A stretch of DNA of 64,000 bases, taken from assembly GCA_016197205.1 (NCBI GenBank), contig JACPWG010000194.1, forward strand, positions 52,429 to 116,428. Direction: 5' to 3'. This document shows positions 16,938 through 35,449 of the stretch, piece after piece (positions within the stretch are counted from its first letter, which is position 1; the number at the start of each line of letters is the position of its first letter). The notes beneath the pieces were generated by a model. It was given only the letters and a program-made list of their open reading frames with translations, was not told the origin of the DNA and did no database searches. This DNA comes from Planctomycetota bacterium (GTDB lineage Bacteria > Planctomycetota > MHYJ01 > WSZJ01 > JACPWG01). The translations under genes were made by a program, and so were the position numbers.

Positions 16938-19250
16938 TCACTCCTCCCCGGCCAGCGACACCCTCACCCGCCCCGCCAGCCACGGCAGCTCCAGCGTCTC
17001 CTCCCGGAAACCGCCGACGCGCAACGACACTCCGAGCGGCCCGGGGTTGACCTCGATGCGCAGCTCTTCGCCCGCCCTCCGCATCCGCCCGCCGCCGGCC
17101 AGGAGCGCACCGCCCAAATAGGCGGCGCCCGACTGCTCAAGGCCAGGAAGCCGCCGAGCCAGCAGCCGGCAGGCCTGCTGGGCGAGCAGCATGGCCAGCC
17201 GGCACTCGTGCCCTTCCCCCGCCTCGTCGGGCAGTCGTTGCGCCTGGACCAAGTGGACCCATTCCCCCGTAAAACCACGGCGACGCGTGCGGGACCGCTC
17301 GTCCGCGTCGCGCGCCTCGCCGAACGAAGCCACCTCCGCGCCGAACTCCGCAGCGAGCGCGCGGCGCCCCCACCGCCCGAGCACGCGGCCGTCGACCGTG
17401 AGGCCGAGGCCCGGCCTCCCCCCGCGGCTTGCCTCGAGGGCGCCGCAATCGGTCAACCCGCGACGCGCCAGCGCCGCGGCCCCGCCCGCGTTCGCCTCCC
17501 CGATGCCCAGCCAGAGGCCCGTCGCGCACTCCTGAAACACCGCCGGACGCGGAGCGGTGTCGCCCGACCCGCGTCGAGGGTGATCGCCGGAGAGGGGGAG
17601 CGTGTCGACGCCCCCGGCGGGCGCGTCCGGGACGTGGAGCAGGAACCGTCCCCCGCCCAGGCGGCCCGATGCCCTCAGGCGCACGAGGAGCCCCCGCTGC
17701 GCGCGGAGCGCCGCCAGTCGATCCGGACCTCGGAACCCCGCCGCCAAATCCGCGTCCCGGGCGGCCCCGTTCAGCCCGACCACCGCGGGCAGCCGTTCGT
17801 CCAGCCGGGCGAGGCGGCCCGGCCAGCCCCCGAGGGCCGAGAGCAGGGCCGCGAGGAGGATGTGTCGCGCCTGCGTCTCCGCCACTCCCGCTTCGCGGAG
17901 GGACTCCCAGGCGCCCAGTTCCGAAAACGGACCGAGCAGCAGCGCGACCCCCGCCGTGTTGGACGACTCGTCGAAAATCCGCTCCGTGTCCTCCACCCGC
18001 CCGCCCAAAGCGCGCTCGAGCGCCTCGACCGGCCGCGACTCCCTGCTGTCGGCGAGCGGCCCCGCCCCCCGGACCTCCGGCCCCCGGACGTCCGCGTGTC
18101 GGCGGCCGTCCGCGGTCGGCCGACTCCCGGCCTCTCCGCGGTCCAAGCGACAGGCCAGGACCTCCTCCAGCCAGCCGCCCCCGCCCGGGCCCGCCGCGGA
18201 CCGCAAGGCCGTCAGGAAGTCCCGTCTCCCCAGCAGGCGCTCCACTTGCGCCACCTCGGCGGTGGGGAGGCTCTCCTCTCCCCGCAGGTACCGTAGCACG
18301 GAGGCCGGGTAGGGTAAATGCCGTAGGAGTGCGCGAAGCCGAGCCAGAAGGTCCAGCACGGCAGCGAGCCACGCGCGCTCGCGCGGCTCGCAGGTCGTCG
18401 GCAGGGCGAGAACCCAAGCGCGAAGCCGTTGGGCCGCGTTCCCCGCCGGCCCCCCGCCGCCCCCCGGGCTCCAACCGCCTCCCGTCCTCGCTCCTTCAGC
18501 GCGGGGGGCCGCATCCAGCGCGCGCGCCGCGAGCGCCGCGAGCTCTCTCAGCCTGCCACCCGTCGGCCACGGGCCCTGCCTTTCCGCCGCCTCCGCGGCC
18601 GCGGAGAGAAGCCGGCCGCACCCCTCCTCGCCGAGAAGGCGGACCAGCGCGTCCATCTCCCCCTGGTCCCGGAACGCCAGCAGGATGTCGCCGAGGTCCG
18701 CGGCGCATCGCGTCAGCGCTGCGAGCGCCCCCGCGCCGGGTGGGAGCGCACGCAGGGCCTCGTAACAGCGGAAATACCACCGATCCCAGGCGCGGCCGTC
18801 GAGAAGCTCGGCCAGAAAAGCGGCGACGAAATGCGAGGGGGTCGGAAAGCGAACGACCGGCGGGCCCTCCGGGGAGGCGGTCGCGAACCGCGCGCAGGCG
18901 GGGTCCTGGAGACTGCGGGCGAGCCCCTGCGAGACGGCGTCCGCCCAGGCGCGTGCGGCCGGCGCCCCGCCGTCCGGACCGCGACCGACGGCGCATTCCG
19001 TTGCCAGGGCCAGGTCCACCTCCACGCGCCGGACAAGGACCAACTCCTCCCCCGGCACAAGAAGTCCGCCCAGCGCGGGCTCGAGTTCGGCCGCCAGTCG
19101 CTCGGCCGCGCGGTCCAGCGCCCGCTTCAGGACCGACCCGCCCTCGTCCCCCTCCTCGTCGAGCAGATACTCGCAGACGTGGCGCGCGACGACGATCCCG
19201 CCGGGGACCGCCGCGTCCCGTGCGAAATCGGGCGATGCCCAGGCTTGCAT
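16938..19250 (-). CDS. Hypothetical 770-aa protein, last gene of the CIS-like island; candidate tail-length determinator (tape-measure-like) by position only
   Basis: ATG at 19250. Ala/Leu/Arg/Glu-rich composition predicted helical. The complementary-strand ORF 17429..19717 is a Pro/Arg-rich shadow frame. No family was recognised. Confidence 0.5.
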   Translation of the reverse strand: MQAWASPDFARDAAVPGGIVVARHVCEYLLDEEGDEGGSVLKRALDRAAERLAAELEPALGGLLVPGEELVLVRRVEVDLALATECAVGRGPDGGAPAARAWADAVSQGLARSLQDPACARFATASPEGPPVVRFPTPSHFVAAFLAELLDGRAWDRWYFRCYEALRALPPGAGALAALTRCAADLGDILLAFRDQGEMDALVRLLGEEGCGRLLSAAAEAAERQGPWPTGGRLRELAALAARALDAAPRAEGARTGGGWSPGGGGGPAGNAAQRLRAWVLALPTTCEPRERAWLAAVLDLLARLRALLRHLPYPASVLRYLRGEESLPTAEVAQVERLLGRRDFLTALRSAAGPGGGGWLEEVLACRLDRGEAGSRPTADGRRHADVRGPEVRGAGPLADSRESRPVEALERALGGRVEDTERIFDESSNTAGVALLLGPFSELGAWESLREAGVAETQARHILLAALLSALGGWPGRLARLDERLPAVVGLNGAARDADLAAGFRGPDRLAALRAQRGLLVRLRASGRLGGGRFLLHVPDAPAGGVDTLPLSGDHPRRGSGDTAPRPAVFQECATGLWLGIGEANAGGAAALARRGLTDCGALEASRGGRPGLGLTVDGRVLGRWGRRALAAEFGAEVASFGEARDADERSRTRRRGFTGEWVHLVQAQRLPDEAGEGHECRLAMLLAQQACRLLARRLPGLEQSGAAYLGGALLAGGGRMRRAGEELRIEVNPGPLGVSLRVGGFREETLELPWLAGRVRVSLAGEE

Positions 19251-19289
19251 CGGCTACCGCCTTAAGGCCTGTGACGTTCTCGGGGGCGC

Positions 19290-19683
19290 CCGCCATGCCG
19301 CCCGACCGTCCGCCTGCGGGCGGAACCACGAAAGGCGGCGTCGGCCCACGACAACTGCGGCCGCACTCGGACAACGGGCCACGAGTGGCCTGTTGCCGAG
19401 CTCCAGACACGAGGCCTGGGGGCGCGGGCCTCCCTCCTCCGCTCGCTCGCCGCGAGCTACGGAGCGCAGGCCCGCCCGCGAGAACGGCCCCATGGGTTGC
19501 GACCCGCCGTGGCAGGGTGGACGACGGGGTCCATCGTTCGTCAACGGGCCACGAGTGGCCTGTTGCCGAAGTCCAGATACGATGCCTGGGGGCGCGGGCC
19601 TCCGGCCCGCGCGAACGTCCGCACGGCGTACGACACGCCGTGACAGAGTTGACGACTGTGTCCGAAGTTCGTCAACGGGCCCC
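19290..19683. repeat. Tandem REP-like palindromic repeats (two full units plus a partial one)
   Basis: Unit: gacaacgggccacgagtggcctgttgccgagctccagacacgaggcctgggggcgcgggcctcc, with palindrome GGCCACGAGTGGCC. It repeats at ~19366 and ~19541, with a partial third copy at ~19660. cctgggggcgcgggcctccggcccgcg also occurs at 22540, 26300 and 63930. Confidence 0.6.
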
Positions 19684-33923: not shown

Positions 33924-35395
33924 CGCGCACCCCCCACGGCGCCCGAGAGCGCTCGGTACAGGGGACAGCTCTCGCACCCCCGCAGCCCCTGGTCGCAGTG
34001 CGTGTGGAACATCTCGAGCAGGCCCTGCTGCCGTCGGGAGGTCGTCACGAGTCCCTGCACGTCCCCGCGCGGGCCGAAGAGGCGGAGTCGTCCGAAGCGA
34101 AGAAGGTGGTTCTCGCCGAGGGCGGGGAAGTCCTGGCACAGGTTTCCGGCAGCCGCAGCCAGGTCCGGCCTCCCCGTGCGCGCGCCGTGCGCGGCGGCCA
34201 GCGGCAGGAAGACGTTGAGCAGCATCAGCCGCGCCCGCTCCCGCCCGATCAGCGCCGCACCGCGCACGTGCCCGCTCCCGCTCGCGACGTGCCGCCGGGA
34301 CCAGAACCCGCCGTCGCGGGGCACGACGAGCCGCCCTTCGAGCGAGGCGAGTACGTTCCCCAGCGTCCTGCGCGGCCACGGCCCCGGACCGGCCGCCGCG
34401 AGTTTCGTTTCCAGCTCCGCGTAGAGTCCAGCCCCTTCGCCGAGGCCGGCCAGGAGTCGGGCCGCGCCCGCGAGCCTGCGCGCCGGCGCGTTCGCGGGCC
34501 GCAGCCCGCCGAGGGCCCACGCCTCCGGCGAGAGCGCGGGCTCCGGCAGTGTCCCCGCCCGCCCCAACGCCTCGCGCGCCGCGCGGGCGTACGCCGCCTC
34601 CGGCTCGCCTCGCGCTCCGTCCGGCAGAAGGCCCGCGCGGTCGAGCAGCACGGCCTCGAGGCCGGCCACTCGTGCTTCACGGGGGAAGCGCGCGGCGAGC
34701 CGGAGCAGCTCCGACGCCGGCAGCGTCTCCGCCAGGCGCCGGAACGGCGCCACGTTTCCCCGATACCCGAGCGCTTCGAAGAGGCCCCGGTGGAAGACCT
34801 CCTCGGCGGACGCGCCCGCATCCAGCTCGCGCCCGAGGCGCCTCACCGACTCCGCGAAACGGACGTCTCCCGCGCGGTCCAGGAAGCGGCCGACGAATGC
34901 CTGCAGCGACCGGCGACCGAGCAACGCGCCGTGGCAGAGCCCGACGCCCGCGAACCTCTCCTCCGGATAGCCCTCCCGGCTCAACTGCACGGCGAGCTGC
35001 GAAGCGGGAGGCTCCACCCAGGGCTCGAGCACCAACTGCGGGATGAGGCGTCCGCCGGCGCCGGCCGCCCAGAGCCCGGCGCGGTCGTGCCGGAGCGCGA
35101 CGTGGAGCGCCACGCCGGCGTAGGCCGCCTGCCGGTCGTGGCCGTGCCGCCACCAGTCCCCCGTCGAGAGGTGCACCTCGACGTCGCCGACCACCCGCTC
35201 GCCCCCGAGCTCAAGCACGGCGCCGCGGAAGTCCGGGCCGCCGTCCAGGCTCCAGTGTCCCGGCGTGAGCACGCGCACGCGCCGTCCGTCCAGCGTGGCC
35301 AACCCCTCCGCGCGCAGTCGCTGGTCGAACCAGATGCAGTGGACCAGGTATTCGTTCGCGGCCGGTCCTTGCCCGTACGCGCGCGGCCGCGGCAT
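33920..35395 (-). CDS. DUF2851-family protein
   Basis: ATG at 35395 preferred (35449 is the alternative). EYLVHCIWFDQRL...LATLDGRRVRVLTPGHWSLDGGPDFRGAVLELGGERVVGDVEVHLSTGDWWRHGHDRQAAYAGVALHVAL, with C-terminal CESCPLYRAL. Matches the DUF2851 pattern (YIWQ...G.WN.D.GPDF..A.I.IDG...GDVEIH...SDW..HGH). Confidence 0.6.
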   Translation of the reverse strand: MPRPRAYGQGPAANEYLVHCIWFDQRLRAEGLATLDGRRVRVLTPGHWSLDGGPDFRGAVLELGGERVVGDVEVHLSTGDWWRHGHDRQAAYAGVALHVALRHDRAGLWAAGAGGRLIPQLVLEPWVEPPASQLAVQLSREGYPEERFAGVGLCHGALLGRRSLQAFVGRFLDRAGDVRFAESVRRLGRELDAGASAEEVFHRGLFEALGYRGNVAPFRRLAETLPASELLRLAARFPREARVAGLEAVLLDRAGLLPDGARGEPEAAYARAAREALGRAGTLPEPALSPEAWALGGLRPANAPARRLAGAARLLAGLGEGAGLYAELETKLAAAGPGPWPRRTLGNVLASLEGRLVVPRDGGFWSRRHVASGSGHVRGAALIGRERARLMLLNVFLPLAAAHGARTGRPDLAAAAGNLCQDFPALGENHLLRFGRLRLFGPRGDVQGLVTTSRRQQGLLEMFHTHCDQGLRGCESCPLYRALSGAVGGAR

Positions 35396-35449
35396 GGCCA
35401 CCCGCGAGGCGCCCTGCTCCGTTTCGACCGTCACGTCCGTGCGAGCCAT

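Follow-up and report, generated by a model that had tools for sequence, protein, structure and literature searches.

Our analysis covered a window of 64 kb, taken from a 120.7-kb contig of the Planctomycetota bacterium GCA_016197205.1, and two short contigs of a sister genome, GCA_016220045.1; both genomes are MAGs. The gene content of the window was surveyed with Pfam and NCBIfam profiles over the 49 genes called. An eCIS-type cluster occupies one minus-strand operon running from about 32581 to 16938. Its genes encode, in order, a cap (Pvc16_N), a pair of gp19 tubes, a mini-protein at the Afp6 position, an initiator with CIS_tube and LysM domains, a gp27-like hub of reduced size, the baseplate proteins gp25, Baseplate_J and P2-I, a pair of CIS13-like proteins, a 181-aa protein with Ig-like domains and a 770-aa protein. 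The flanks (rpsB-tsf-pyrH-frr and aroK) are housekeeping genes, as the original prediction had it. The features are as follows.

32793..35449, minus strand: Amidohydro_2 and DUF2851 genes, not CIS parts; the same neighbours are kept in the sister MAG
32554..32581, minus strand: promoter-like site TTGAAT-16 nt-TATAAT, ~35 nt 5' of the cap start codon
31900..32520, minus strand: cap or tube terminator, Pvc16_N (Pfam E 7e-37)
31975..31976, no strand: site at which 113 nt are deleted by comparison with Logan contig L007 (positions 3610-3722)
31562..31975, minus strand: main tube, gp19 family, Afp1-type (Pfam Phage_T4_gp19 E 1e-41; called as 31562-32044)
31049..31555, minus strand: second tube, gp19 family, Afp5/CIS5-type tube-baseplate adaptor (Pfam Phage_T4_gp19 E 3e-28)
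30788..31035, no strand: low-GC hairpin repeat (one copy, ~250 nt), filling most of an enlarged 467-nt gap
30405..30581, minus strand: 58-aa protein at the Afp6 position, starting MPLIVQELVSRVRV (dN/dS 0.15)
29827..30423, minus strand: tube initiator, CIS_tube and LysM, Afp7-type (Pfam E 6e-10 and 1e-4)
28970..29830, minus strand: reduced gp27-like hub, 286 aa (NCBIfam VgrG_rel E 2e-12 and matches to the gp27-like hubs of relatives)
28487..28876, minus strand: gp25-like baseplate wedge with the EPR motif kept (Pfam GPW_gp25 E 5e-15; called as 28487-28960)
26532..28451, minus strand: Baseplate_J, gp6/Afp11-type (Pfam E 2e-23)
25054..26217, minus strand: P2-gpI/CIS12-type wedge (Pfam Tail_P2_I E 2e-14)
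22640..25057, minus strand: 805-aa CIS13-like protein with a beta-propeller (p805), full-length orthologue of a ~800-aa canonical protein
20432..22189, minus strand: 585-aa protein (p585), CIS13-like in its N-terminal domain; identity to the sister protein 71% (dN/dS 0.41)
19683..20228, minus strand: 181-aa protein (p181) with two Ig-like beta-sandwich domains (AlphaFold2 pLDDT 95.5)
16938..19250, minus strand: 770-aa protein (p770) at the tape-measure position, both ends matching a 478-489-aa canonical protein

The profile matches listed above bear out the tube, gp25 and Baseplate_J assignments of the original prediction, as well as its DUF4255 cap-like protein, LysM initiator, P2-gpI-like wedge and gpD/VgrG-position protein. 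The prediction overlooked the 58-aa gene and the absence of a gp5-type spike. The island had been drawn up to 35449, into the Amidohydro_2 and DUF2851 genes, and gp25 up to 28921, although alignment to relatives most likely places the gp25 start at 28876.

The promoter-like site scores 10 of 12 matches, against a chance expectation of 0.1. In the sister contig L089 the sole match, TTGCAA-16-TATAAT, lies at the equivalent place within a spacer that is otherwise poorly conserved. The final ~25 codons of the cap are out of frame in the window copy because of the 113-nt deletion, which takes out the stop codon of the cap, the ribosome-binding site and the opening codons of tube 1; this copy of the main tube gene lacks its own start codon. 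In L007, which Logan assembled independently from the same sample, the cap has 199 aa, a 34-nt spacer carries the ribosome-binding site, and tube 1 is intact (145 aa, N-terminus MPKAERSDPYGSFNF). The overlap between the cap and tube-1 coordinates of the original prediction is a product of the deletion in the window assembly. The cap is 72% identical to its sister counterpart and the main tube 80% (dN/dS 0.19 for each), while the latter shares 62% identity with the tube of the related locus L001. The second tube begins 6 nt after tube 1, matches CIS5_fam (NCBIfam E 3e-26) and keeps 21/21 family-conserved residues. The gap that follows measures 467 nt in the window versus 51 nt in the sister; repeat elements, both hairpin and GC-rich, enlarge four intergenic gaps in the window.

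The 58-aa protein, also encoded at the Afp6 position in the sister, resembles the 63-66-aa proteins at the same place in the three nearest loci (L001, an ENA scaffold; L002, a Thermoanaerobaculia MAG; L003, a Bryobacteraceae MAG) in common N-terminal and acidic central stretches, a likeness seen in a by-eye alignment that carries no statistic. Protein identities between window and L001 range from 25 to 62%. The conservation of the initiator (34% identical to L001, dN/dS 0.34) falls on the margin of what relatives show, or outside it. The hub gave no Pfam match and has 286 aa as opposed to 375-400 aa in relatives, with ~110-130 internal residues gone; this internal deletion is common to the 279-aa sister hub (dN/dS 0.43), and the hub gene is not followed by one for a gp5-type spike. 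Within its family the hub diverges most: about half of the family-conserved residues are lost, and the 15 kept of 23 aligned conserved residues are the lowest count among 61 sequences (Fisher p = 0.0008 vs J). gp25 has lost 4-8 of 21 conserved residues and likewise falls on the margin of the relatives' range or outside it (dN/dS 0.51). In contrast, J and both tubes retain 95-100% of family-conserved residues (71/75 for J, which is 43-47% identical to its nearest homologues; dN/dS 0.38). Constraint on the hub and gp25 has been selectively released. The P2-I wedge is without ~265-300 N-terminal residues, where NHL-repeat Pfam matches precede Tail_P2_I in relatives.

The C-terminal part of p805 shows a dN/dS of 0.45. 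The Foldseek matches of the p181 model are Ig-like domains found in GH2 enzymes, in invasin and in intimin. No homologue was found in the 80 related genome loci scanned for it, and the protein is clade-specific. It is 87% identical to its sister homologue, and its dN/dS of 0.10 marks the strongest constraint in the cluster. Repeats related to p181 are present in Invasin_D3/Big_1 giant proteins. In p770 (dN/dS 0.58) ~450 middle residues are unique, and no sequence homologue was found in the PDB. Its canonical counterpart precedes the ATPase; here p770 is followed by the convergent frr gene rather than an ATPase. With dN/dS at 0.4-0.6, the hub, gp25 and p770 are fairly relaxed.

Phage_sheath, PAAR, Phage_base_V (gp5-type spike), eCIS_core and Cdc48-type AAA profiles matched 0/49 genes in the 64 kb, whose one AAA protein, encoded at 586-1536, is of the MoxR AAA_3 type. 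HMMs of the relatives' sheath, spike and ATPase and tblastn searches against all 64 kb gave nothing below E 0.01, and tblastn detected no pseudogene remnants of the missing parts. The claim that sheath, ATPase and PAAR are missing from the 64 kb therefore holds. The absence of PAAR is nevertheless no oddity: the called genes of the three closest loci hold no PAAR match either, and an eCIS subtype without afp10 has been described (Chen et al. 2019, PMC6899500). The absence of the ATPase can be read in the window only, because the sister contig stops within the p770 homologue. The cluster also lacks the CarboxypepD_reg-like and ~240-aa proteins of relatives and a cargo-type eCIS_core/DUF4157 gene like that near the ATPase in L001. 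The deletions match gene or domain boundaries, with no fragments left.

Of the related loci that were informative, drawn from genomes and metagenomes, 130/130 have a sheath; in every one its genes lie within the locus beside those for the tube, and in the closest lineage sheath and tube genes are interleaved. The closest loci have the order cap, CarboxypepD_reg, sheath, tube, sheath, tube … hub, spike, gp25, J … ATPase. The gene order, which had been called unusual, is so in its tube-tube adjacency, a result of sheath loss, but not in its cap-first arrangement, which is normal in the closest relatives. A separate spike ORF occurs in 81/91 loci; the other 10 form a more distant lineage, in which the spike may be fused, since the hub-class ORFs inspected there have ~590 aa. 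The ATPase follows the tape-measure-position gene in 5/5 loci. In tube and J trees, the window groups with the sister, and their clade lies nested within the sheath-bearing loci, so the loss of parts is secondary.

The sister has the same sheathless, spikeless order, flanking genes, hub deletion and promoter-like site. One of its contigs carries DUF2851, Amidohydro_2, cap, tube, tube, the 58-aa gene, initiator, 279-aa hub, gp25 and J, and the other p805, p585, p181 and p770. Between window and sister, dN/dS is 0.10-0.58 in 12/12 cluster genes (upper 95% limits ≤ 0.72; dS 0.5-1.1), with 0.29 and 0.37 for flanking control genes. All 12 cluster genes are under purifying selection. Reading frames are intact in both lineages except for the tube-1 start and cap end of the window, genes adjoin tightly in the sister, and the window retains GC3 periodicity. 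A second diverged MAG and low dN/dS thus speak against both an assembly artefact and a freely decaying relic. The clade members found number two, both similarly named Planctomycetes MAGs, besides a single tube fragment of 648 bp (63% identity). Spurious long ORFs are numerous in the window genome.

We consider it probable (roughly 0.6) that the cluster descends vertically from a lineage-II eCIS as a sheathless derivative maintained by selection, and that its product is a non-contractile baseplate-tube-cap particle. The ancestor would have lost both sheath paralogues (the motor) and the gp5-type spike (the tip), further the CarboxypepD_reg-like protein, the ~240-aa protein and, from the P2-I wedge, its NHL portion, and, as far as the window shows, the AAA+ ATPase; all injection-enabling parts would then be gone. 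Transcription would proceed from the promoter ahead of the cap gene. J, P2-I and gp25 would surround the minimised hub, topped by the LysM initiator and the adaptor tube ring, then by the gp19 tube, its length perhaps set by p770, and finally by the Pvc16_N cap. The beta-propeller/CIS13-like proteins and the newly acquired Ig-like p181 would be outward-facing binding modules. Such a particle would be expected to assemble, with no contraction or cargo delivery, and to act by binding (as an adhesin, a scaffold or in a tailocin-like manner) rather than by injection. A contractile injection machine may here have given rise in nature to a non-contractile descendant, a kind for which no example was found in the literature searched.

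The nearest loci, L001-L003, are lineage-II eCIS and share with the window the cap-first order, the Pvc16_N cap, Afp1- and Afp5-type gp19 tubes, the small Afp6-position gene, the CIS_tube/LysM initiator, a gp27-like hub separate from the spike, gp25, a single Baseplate_J, CIS12-like P2-I, CIS13-like proteins, a tape-measure-position protein and the lack of PAAR. The wider family has studied members in the Streptomyces coelicolor CIS, AlgoCIS and Anabaena CIS, whose Cis8/VgrG chains match the hub profile. However, relatives possess one or two sheaths, a Phage_base_V spike, an AAA+ ATPase and CarboxypepD_reg-like, ~240-aa and eCIS_core cargo genes, all missing from the window cluster. Its hub and P2-I are shorter than theirs, its tape-measure-position protein is longer (770 aa vs ~480 aa), and its clade has gained the Ig-like 181-aa protein. 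F-type tailocins and siphophage tails resemble the predicted particle in having a sheathless, rigid or flexible tube and a tip complex. Siphophage tail tubes are often decorated by Ig-like domains, which the gained p181 recalls. The parts found here are nonetheless all of myovirus/eCIS type (gp19, gp25, J, P2-I, Pvc16_N), so the likeness would be convergent; no lambda-type tube, distal tail or tail-tip proteins were found among the window genes. T4 gene-18 mutants accumulate tube-baseplates: baseplate and gp19-type tube form without sheath protein, as predicted here from the genes. The predicted particle, corresponding to a known T4 assembly intermediate, is thus physically plausible. The T4 structures are laboratory dead-end intermediates, whereas here the sheathless state is natural, occurs in two diverged genomes and is under selection. 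Sheathless assembly is not guaranteed, since tail-like structures were undetectable after deletion of the sheath gene in Streptomyces coelicolor (PMC10020575).

That the sheath genes were simply dropped or collapsed in metagenome assembly is scarcely credible. The 113-nt indel between window contig and Logan assembly does mean that the MAG sequence is not the sole haplotype, or not error-free, but the cap-tube-tube junction is the same from two assemblers on this sample, and the same order recurs in a different MAG at only 60-80% protein identity. It is improbable, though less so, that sheath, spike, ATPase and cargo lie at another locus in both genomes and that an ordinary contractile eCIS or T6SS-iv-like machine is built from two operons. 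Contractile genes of the superfamily do occur outside a single locus: Chen et al. 2019 (PMC6899500) report 13 'split loci' as well as a T6SS-iv in Amoebophilus asiaticus that is encoded at two loci. Both MAGs are incomplete and were seen in part, and purifying selection on tube, baseplate and cap would be equally expected. Yet with sheath and tubes adjoining in 130/130 relatives, several separate, precise relocations would be needed, and a remodelled hub and gp25 beside normal J and tubes would be unexpected were spike and sheath in use. In those precedents the sheath lies elsewhere in a complete genome, whereas no second locus is known for the window clade; a weak further point is that no second Planctomycetes MAG J appears among the 120 matches listed of 803. 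The remodelled hub and gp25 lead us to favour true loss over a sheath encoded elsewhere.

A dead eCIS in slow decay, its ORFs open since stop codons are scarce at 70% GC, is also unlikely. It would fit the loss of at least six core genes, the out-of-frame deletion over cap end and tube-1 start in the window allele, the repeats inside four intergenic gaps, the extreme divergence of the hub and the many spurious ORFs. However, dN/dS is significantly below 1 in every cluster gene at dS ~0.5-1, similar to the flanking non-CIS genes; intact frames, tight sister junctions and GC3 periodicity point the same way, as do the conserved promoter-like site, deletions confined to gene or domain boundaries and a strongly non-uniform divergence (hub vs J). 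Inactivation is possibly recent and confined to the window lineage, and the 113-nt deletion and repeat expansion could indicate that this lineage is now losing the system.

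Genes were called by third-position GC content (the window has about 70% GC), and a Pfam scan of all 49 confirmed the core of the original prediction: a CIS-like island with tubes, baseplate and cap is present, and no sheath, AAA+ ATPase or PAAR gene was found in the 64 kb. Some corrections are needed. The island had been placed at 16938-35449; its minus-strand gene series spans 32520 down to 16938, an operon of about 15.6 kb, and the remainder (32793-35449) encodes Amidohydro_2 and DUF2851 proteins, which are not CIS parts. A 58-aa gene had been overlooked. The operon contains the following features.

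Features of the CIS operon in the window (E values from Pfam unless stated)
32581-32554, minus: sigma-70-like site, the sole strong one found for the operon's strand within the scanned region
31900-32520, minus: Pvc16_N cap (Afp16 tube terminator, PF14065), E 7e-37
31562-32044, minus: tube 1, the main gp19 tube (PF06841), E 1e-41
31049-31555, minus: tube 2, the second gp19 tube (PF06841), E 3e-28; CIS5-like in NCBIfam
30405-30581, minus: 58-aa gene; by eye, its product resembles the 63-66-aa proteins that related loci encode in this place
29827-30423, minus: CIS_tube + LysM initiator (Afp7), E 6e-10 and 1e-4
28970-29830, minus: gp27-like hub, 286 aa (MBI3273452.1 / HYZ53_30995), no Pfam match; NCBIfam VgrG-related, E 2e-12
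28487-28960, minus: gp25 (Afp9, PF04965), E 5e-15
26532-28451, minus: Baseplate_J, here J (Afp11, PF04865), E 2e-23
25054-26217, minus: Tail_P2_I protein, here P2-I, E 2e-14; CIS12-like in NCBIfam
22640-25057, minus: p805, weak beta-propeller matches; N-terminus CIS13-like (NCBIfam)
20432-22189, minus: p585, no Pfam match; N-terminus CIS13-like (NCBIfam)
19683-20228, minus: p181, no Pfam match
16938-19250, minus: p770, no Pfam match

What defines every contractile injection system, from phage tails and R-type tailocins to T6SS and eCIS, is its motor, the sheath. Surveys of eCIS count sheath, spike and ATPase as core parts; eight core subunits, including the sheath, Afp8 and Afp15, have been listed (Chen et al. 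2019, PMC6899500), and according to Vladimirov et al. 2023 (PMC10020575) a Pvc16_N terminator and an AAA+ ATPase are 'invariably' encoded in eCIS regions. Among the core subunits, the window has the Afp1/5 tubes, the Afp7 initiator, Afp9 (gp25), Afp11 (J) and the Afp16 cap. The Afp2/3/4 sheath (PF04984/PF17482) gave no Pfam match in the 49 genes and no HMM or tblastn match in the 64 kb. Afp8 comprises a gp27-like hub and a gp5-like spike, of which a shortened, divergent gp27-like hub only was found; Pfam, HMMs of the relatives and tblastn detected no Phage_base_V/gp5 part across the window, and the same searches found no Afp15/Cdc48-type AAA+ ATPase in the 64 kb. The canonical ATPase position past p770 is taken by a convergent frr gene, and the sole AAA protein in the window, a MoxR at 586-1536, is unrelated to the CIS ATPase. 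PAAR and eCIS_core had no match among the 49 genes, and tblastn of the relatives' proteins over the whole window recovered no pseudogene fragments of sheath, spike, ATPase or accessory proteins below E 0.01. The cluster falls outside the published definitions of a working eCIS, yet clearly descends from eCIS.

Other identities were rejected. A sheath concealed among the unannotated proteins is ruled out, as p805, p585 and p770 have orthologues in canonical sheath-carrying loci and p181 is a small Ig-like protein. A prophage with a contractile tail would bring capsid, portal, terminase, integrase or lysis genes, none of which is among the 49; a PHROGs search of the window returned tail matches only, and the flanks are rpsB-tsf-pyrH-frr, aroK and glycosyltransferases. 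For a type VI secretion system, no TssB/C sheath, TssJLM or ClpV Pfam matches were obtained in the window, and the presence of Pvc16_N with Baseplate_J points to eCIS ancestry. An F-type tailocin or siphovirus-type tail was dismissed for want of a lambda/TP901-type tube, distal tail or tail-tip protein; a siphovirus-type identity fails because the tube is gp19-type and the baseplate gp25/J/I-type.

A search of 5.8 billion proteins gave 803 homologues of J below E 1e-10, the nearest being 43-47% identical. The gene order of the closest sheath-bearing loci was read from L001 (an ENA scaffold), L002 (a Thermoanaerobaculia MAG) and L003 (a Bryobacteraceae MAG). It starts with a Pvc16_N cap, a CarboxypepD_reg-like protein, sheath, tube, sheath, tube and a 63-66-aa protein, continues with a CIS_tube/LysM initiator, a GPD-like hub (375-399 aa), a Phage_base_V spike and a protein of about 240 aa (L002, L003), and ends with gp25, J, an NHL + P2-I protein, two to three large proteins, a 478-489-aa protein and a WHD+AAA ATPase. 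L001 and L003 both show the ATPase, and L002 is cut off short of that position; an eCIS_core protein is the next large gene past it in L001, and PAAR had no match in any of the three. BLASTP pairs all window CIS proteins but p181 with counterparts in these cap-first relatives, so the cap-first order, earlier regarded as a departure from the canonical one, is normal for this lineage. By description only, the relatives fit subtype IIb as Chen described it, with an afp6-position gene, split gp27/gp5 and no PAAR.

Further loci came from a J-alignment scan of species-representative genomes (577 relatives, 80 loci) and a tube 2-alignment scan of JGI metagenomes (80 loci, all canonical and all at 52% identity or less), annotated with HMMs built from the three reference loci. 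A sheath was present in all 130 informative related loci from genomes and metagenomes, and the ATPase follows the 480-aa protein in the five of five that extend far enough. A separate spike ORF was found in 81 of 91 loci; the other 10 belong to a more distant lineage, whose inspected hub-class ORFs have about 590 aa, so hub and spike may form a single fused protein there. The search for hub homologues returned the hub itself and one weak VgrG-like match only, and neither cap-clade patterns in metagenomes nor a viral-contig scan yielded a relative; a tube fragment of a third lineage is P0252. A distant J lineage (L063, L065, L067-L072, L075, L080, L082, L084-L087; Chloroflexota, Actinomycetota and one Gemmatimonadota MAG) has, in order, a single sheath and two neighbouring tube genes, with the initiator about 3-5 kb further on and hub-class ORFs of about 570-600 aa where inspected. 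Tube-tube adjacency therefore occurs elsewhere, always alongside a sheath.

The exhaustive search with p181 led to an 87%-identical protein on a 5.1-kb contig of GCA_016220045.1, a second, diverged Planctomycetes MAG (the sister). That contig also encodes the end of a p805 homologue and homologues of p585 and p770. Searching with tube 2 led to another contig of this MAG (6.5 kb), on which the matching protein is 61% identical. It carries DUF2851, Amidohydro_2, a Pvc16_N cap (200 aa), two gp19 tubes (145 and 164 aa), a 58-aa gene, a CIS_tube initiator (203 aa), a 279-aa protein, gp25 (135 aa) and J, cut by the contig end; the sheath gene is likewise absent from this contig. Sister and window have an identical sheathless, spikeless order at the same chromosomal position and a common internal hub deletion, and the sister gene junctions are tight. 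Neighbour-joining trees of five proteins pair the two every time, and those of tube 1 and J embed them among sheath-bearing loci; loss of the sheath therefore predates their divergence. The observation holds up and goes beyond a single odd locus: sheath and spike are absent in both genomes, and the ATPase is absent in the window, the sole genome with a readable position. The sheathless clade has two known members, both MAGs. It lacks the CarboxypepD_reg-like protein found between cap and first sheath in many canonical relatives (L001 1093-1899, L003 128-1153) and the protein of about 240 aa common between their spike and gp25.

The sigma-70-like site sits in the 272-nt spacer between the cap gene and the Amidohydro_2/DUF2851 pair. 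This promoter-like site is conserved upstream of the sister cap, as TTGCAA-16-TATAAT, the only one in that contig; the spacer around it is otherwise poorly conserved between the two genomes. In both, DUF2851 and Amidohydro_2 overlap by 4 nt directly upstream of the cap (1-1348 on the sister contig); none of the related CIS loci scanned for these two genes has them, and they probably represent a conserved neighbourhood only.

An assembly artefact is effectively excluded as the source of the sheathless order. A Logan re-assembly of SRR12113391 matches three window stretches at 99.9-100% identity, and a 4.7-kb contig from this independent assembly of the same sample (L007) reads DUF2851, Amidohydro_2, cap (199 aa), a 34-nt spacer, tube (145 aa) and tube (168 aa). 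It has the sheathless junction too, which is thus not one assembler's artefact. Compared with L007, the window lacks 113 nt at junction 31976|31975 (L007 3610-3722), next to a GGAGCG near-repeat. Through this deletion the cap loses its stop codon and tube 1 its ribosome-binding site and start (ATG); the cap is fused out of frame into tube 1, which is left without its own start in the window haplotype. The previously noted cap/tube overlap is present in the window, but it is due to this deletion, which is either a true population variant or a MAG assembly error.

Selection was estimated as dN/dS (Nei-Gojobori, bootstrap) between the window, or L007, and the sister. Values were 0.19 for the cap and tube 1, 0.38 for tube 2, 0.15 for the 58-aa gene, 0.34 for the initiator, 0.43 for the hub, 0.51 for gp25, 0.38 for J, 0.45 for the p805 C-terminus, 0.41 for p585, 0.10 for p181 and 0.58 for p770, with all upper 95% limits at or below 0.72 and dS about 0.5-1.1; the flanking Amidohydro_2 and DUF2851 gave 0.29 and 0.37. 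These ratios are, if anything, overestimated, because the strong GC3 bias depresses dS. The cluster is thus conserved between two diverged genomes and evolves under purifying selection.

Of the residues that canonical relatives share at a level of 90% or more, J retains 71 of 75, tube 2 all 21, tube 1 18 of 20 (in both clade members) and gp25 17 of 21. The hub keeps 15 of 23 aligned positions with 6 more deleted, the worst among 61 sequences (hub versus J, Fisher p = 0.0008), and gp25, the initiator and P2-I fall on the margin of the range seen in relatives or outside it. Window and sister differ in residue at many of these positions, a sign of released constraint. Such uneven retention does not fit uniform neutral decay; it does fit the loss of partners for the hub (spike) and gp25 (sheath) while the tube and J wedge continue to be used.

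Several proteins have been reshaped. The hub aligns with relatives in two blocks, with about 110-130 internal residues missing (its AlphaFold2 model, from a two-row alignment, has pLDDT 40, too low to use), and P2-I lacks the approximately 265-300 N-terminal residues that bear NHL repeats in relatives. The p770 protein resembles the canonical 480-aa protein at the ends only, and neither has a sequence homologue in the PDB; by its gene position p770 is a putative tape measure. No counterpart of p181 turned up in the 80 related genome loci searched for it, and among the genes of the cluster p181 is under the tightest constraint. Its AlphaFold2 model (pLDDT 95.5) has two beta-sandwich domains, which in the prediction resemble the paired Ig-like domains found in GH2 enzymes, invasin and intimin; at the sequence level, repeats of giant Invasin_D3/Big_1 proteins are among its relatives.

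Repeat elements enlarge four intergenic gaps in the window. A low-GC element of about 250 nt occurs at 30788-31035, 22245-22491 and 37517-37756 (86-88% identical), and its fold is a single long hairpin (-101 kcal/mol, z = -4.5); Rfam gave no match for it, and no known RNA was found in the enlarged gaps. Two copies lie in enlarged gaps of the operon and one outside, so it behaves like a genome-wide MITE/REP-like repeat. A partly palindromic, GC-rich repeat of about 146 nt (94% identical) is present in the J-to-I and p805-to-p585 gaps (26256-26401, 22495-22640), and the p181-to-p770 gap has a further copy of its 33-nt core (GCGGGCCGGAGGCCCGCGCCCCCAGGCATCG-like) at 19580-19612 and part of one at 19410-19433. 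The 432-nt gap before p770, 16 nt only in the sister, is built by tandem duplication of a unit of about 170 nt (19372-19433 / 19542-19603, 19474-19550 / 19605-19681), part of which is also found at the far end of the window (63925-63994).

The best reading, to which we give a probability of about 0.6, is that the cluster derives from a lineage-II eCIS, is non-contractile and is maintained by selection. The 113-nt deletion and the repeats expanding four gaps could instead reflect decay, at least in the window lineage; the selection data contradict this, and we regard it as unlikely. It is also improbable, in our judgement, that both genomes share a conserved split locus with sheath, spike and ATPase encoded elsewhere, although 13 split loci are on record (Chen et al. 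2019, PMC6899500) and both genomes are MAGs.

For a selectively maintained derivative, the predicted particle would consist of baseplate, reduced hub, tube and cap with beta-propeller, CIS13-like and Ig-like binding modules, and would have no motor, tip, loader or recognisable cargo gene. More tentatively, and somewhat short of even odds, a contractile lineage may have given rise to a natural non-contractile tube-and-baseplate particle: it would have discarded sheath, spike, ATPase and cargo, shrunk the hub, lengthened the putative tape measure (p770) and recruited the two-domain Ig-like p181. Ig-like domains decorate siphophage tails, and p181 may act likewise on the now-exposed gp19 tube. 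Assembly without a sheath is plausible by analogy with T4 gene-18 mutants. It is not assured, since no particles could be seen after deletion of the sheath in Streptomyces (PMC10020575).

Literature searches on extracellular contractile injection systems turned up no eCIS-type cluster described as sheathless. The module of tube and baseplate may serve some function by itself, and the cluster is possibly a natural contractile-to-non-contractile case that bears on the kinship of phage tail types. If true, it would be a living example of the transition from a myovirus-type to a siphovirus-like tail and a bacterial structure of a new class, derived from phage tails, that binds or scaffolds rather than injects; it would also offer a minimal scaffold (baseplate, tube, cap), possibly useful in particle engineering.

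Elsewhere in the window, a minus-strand polysaccharide-biosynthesis run of about 26 kb (37814-63881) encodes about ten GT4-type glycosyltransferases together with a carbamoyltransferase, asparagine synthase, Wzy-like polymerase, flippase, deacetylase and epimerase. On the plus strand, 586-6065 holds the MoxR-type AAA_3 ATPase followed by a 1434-aa GGDEF + AAA_16 + HEAT-repeat protein, and a 724-aa minus-strand ORF at 8606-10780 has coding-type GC3 and no Pfam match.
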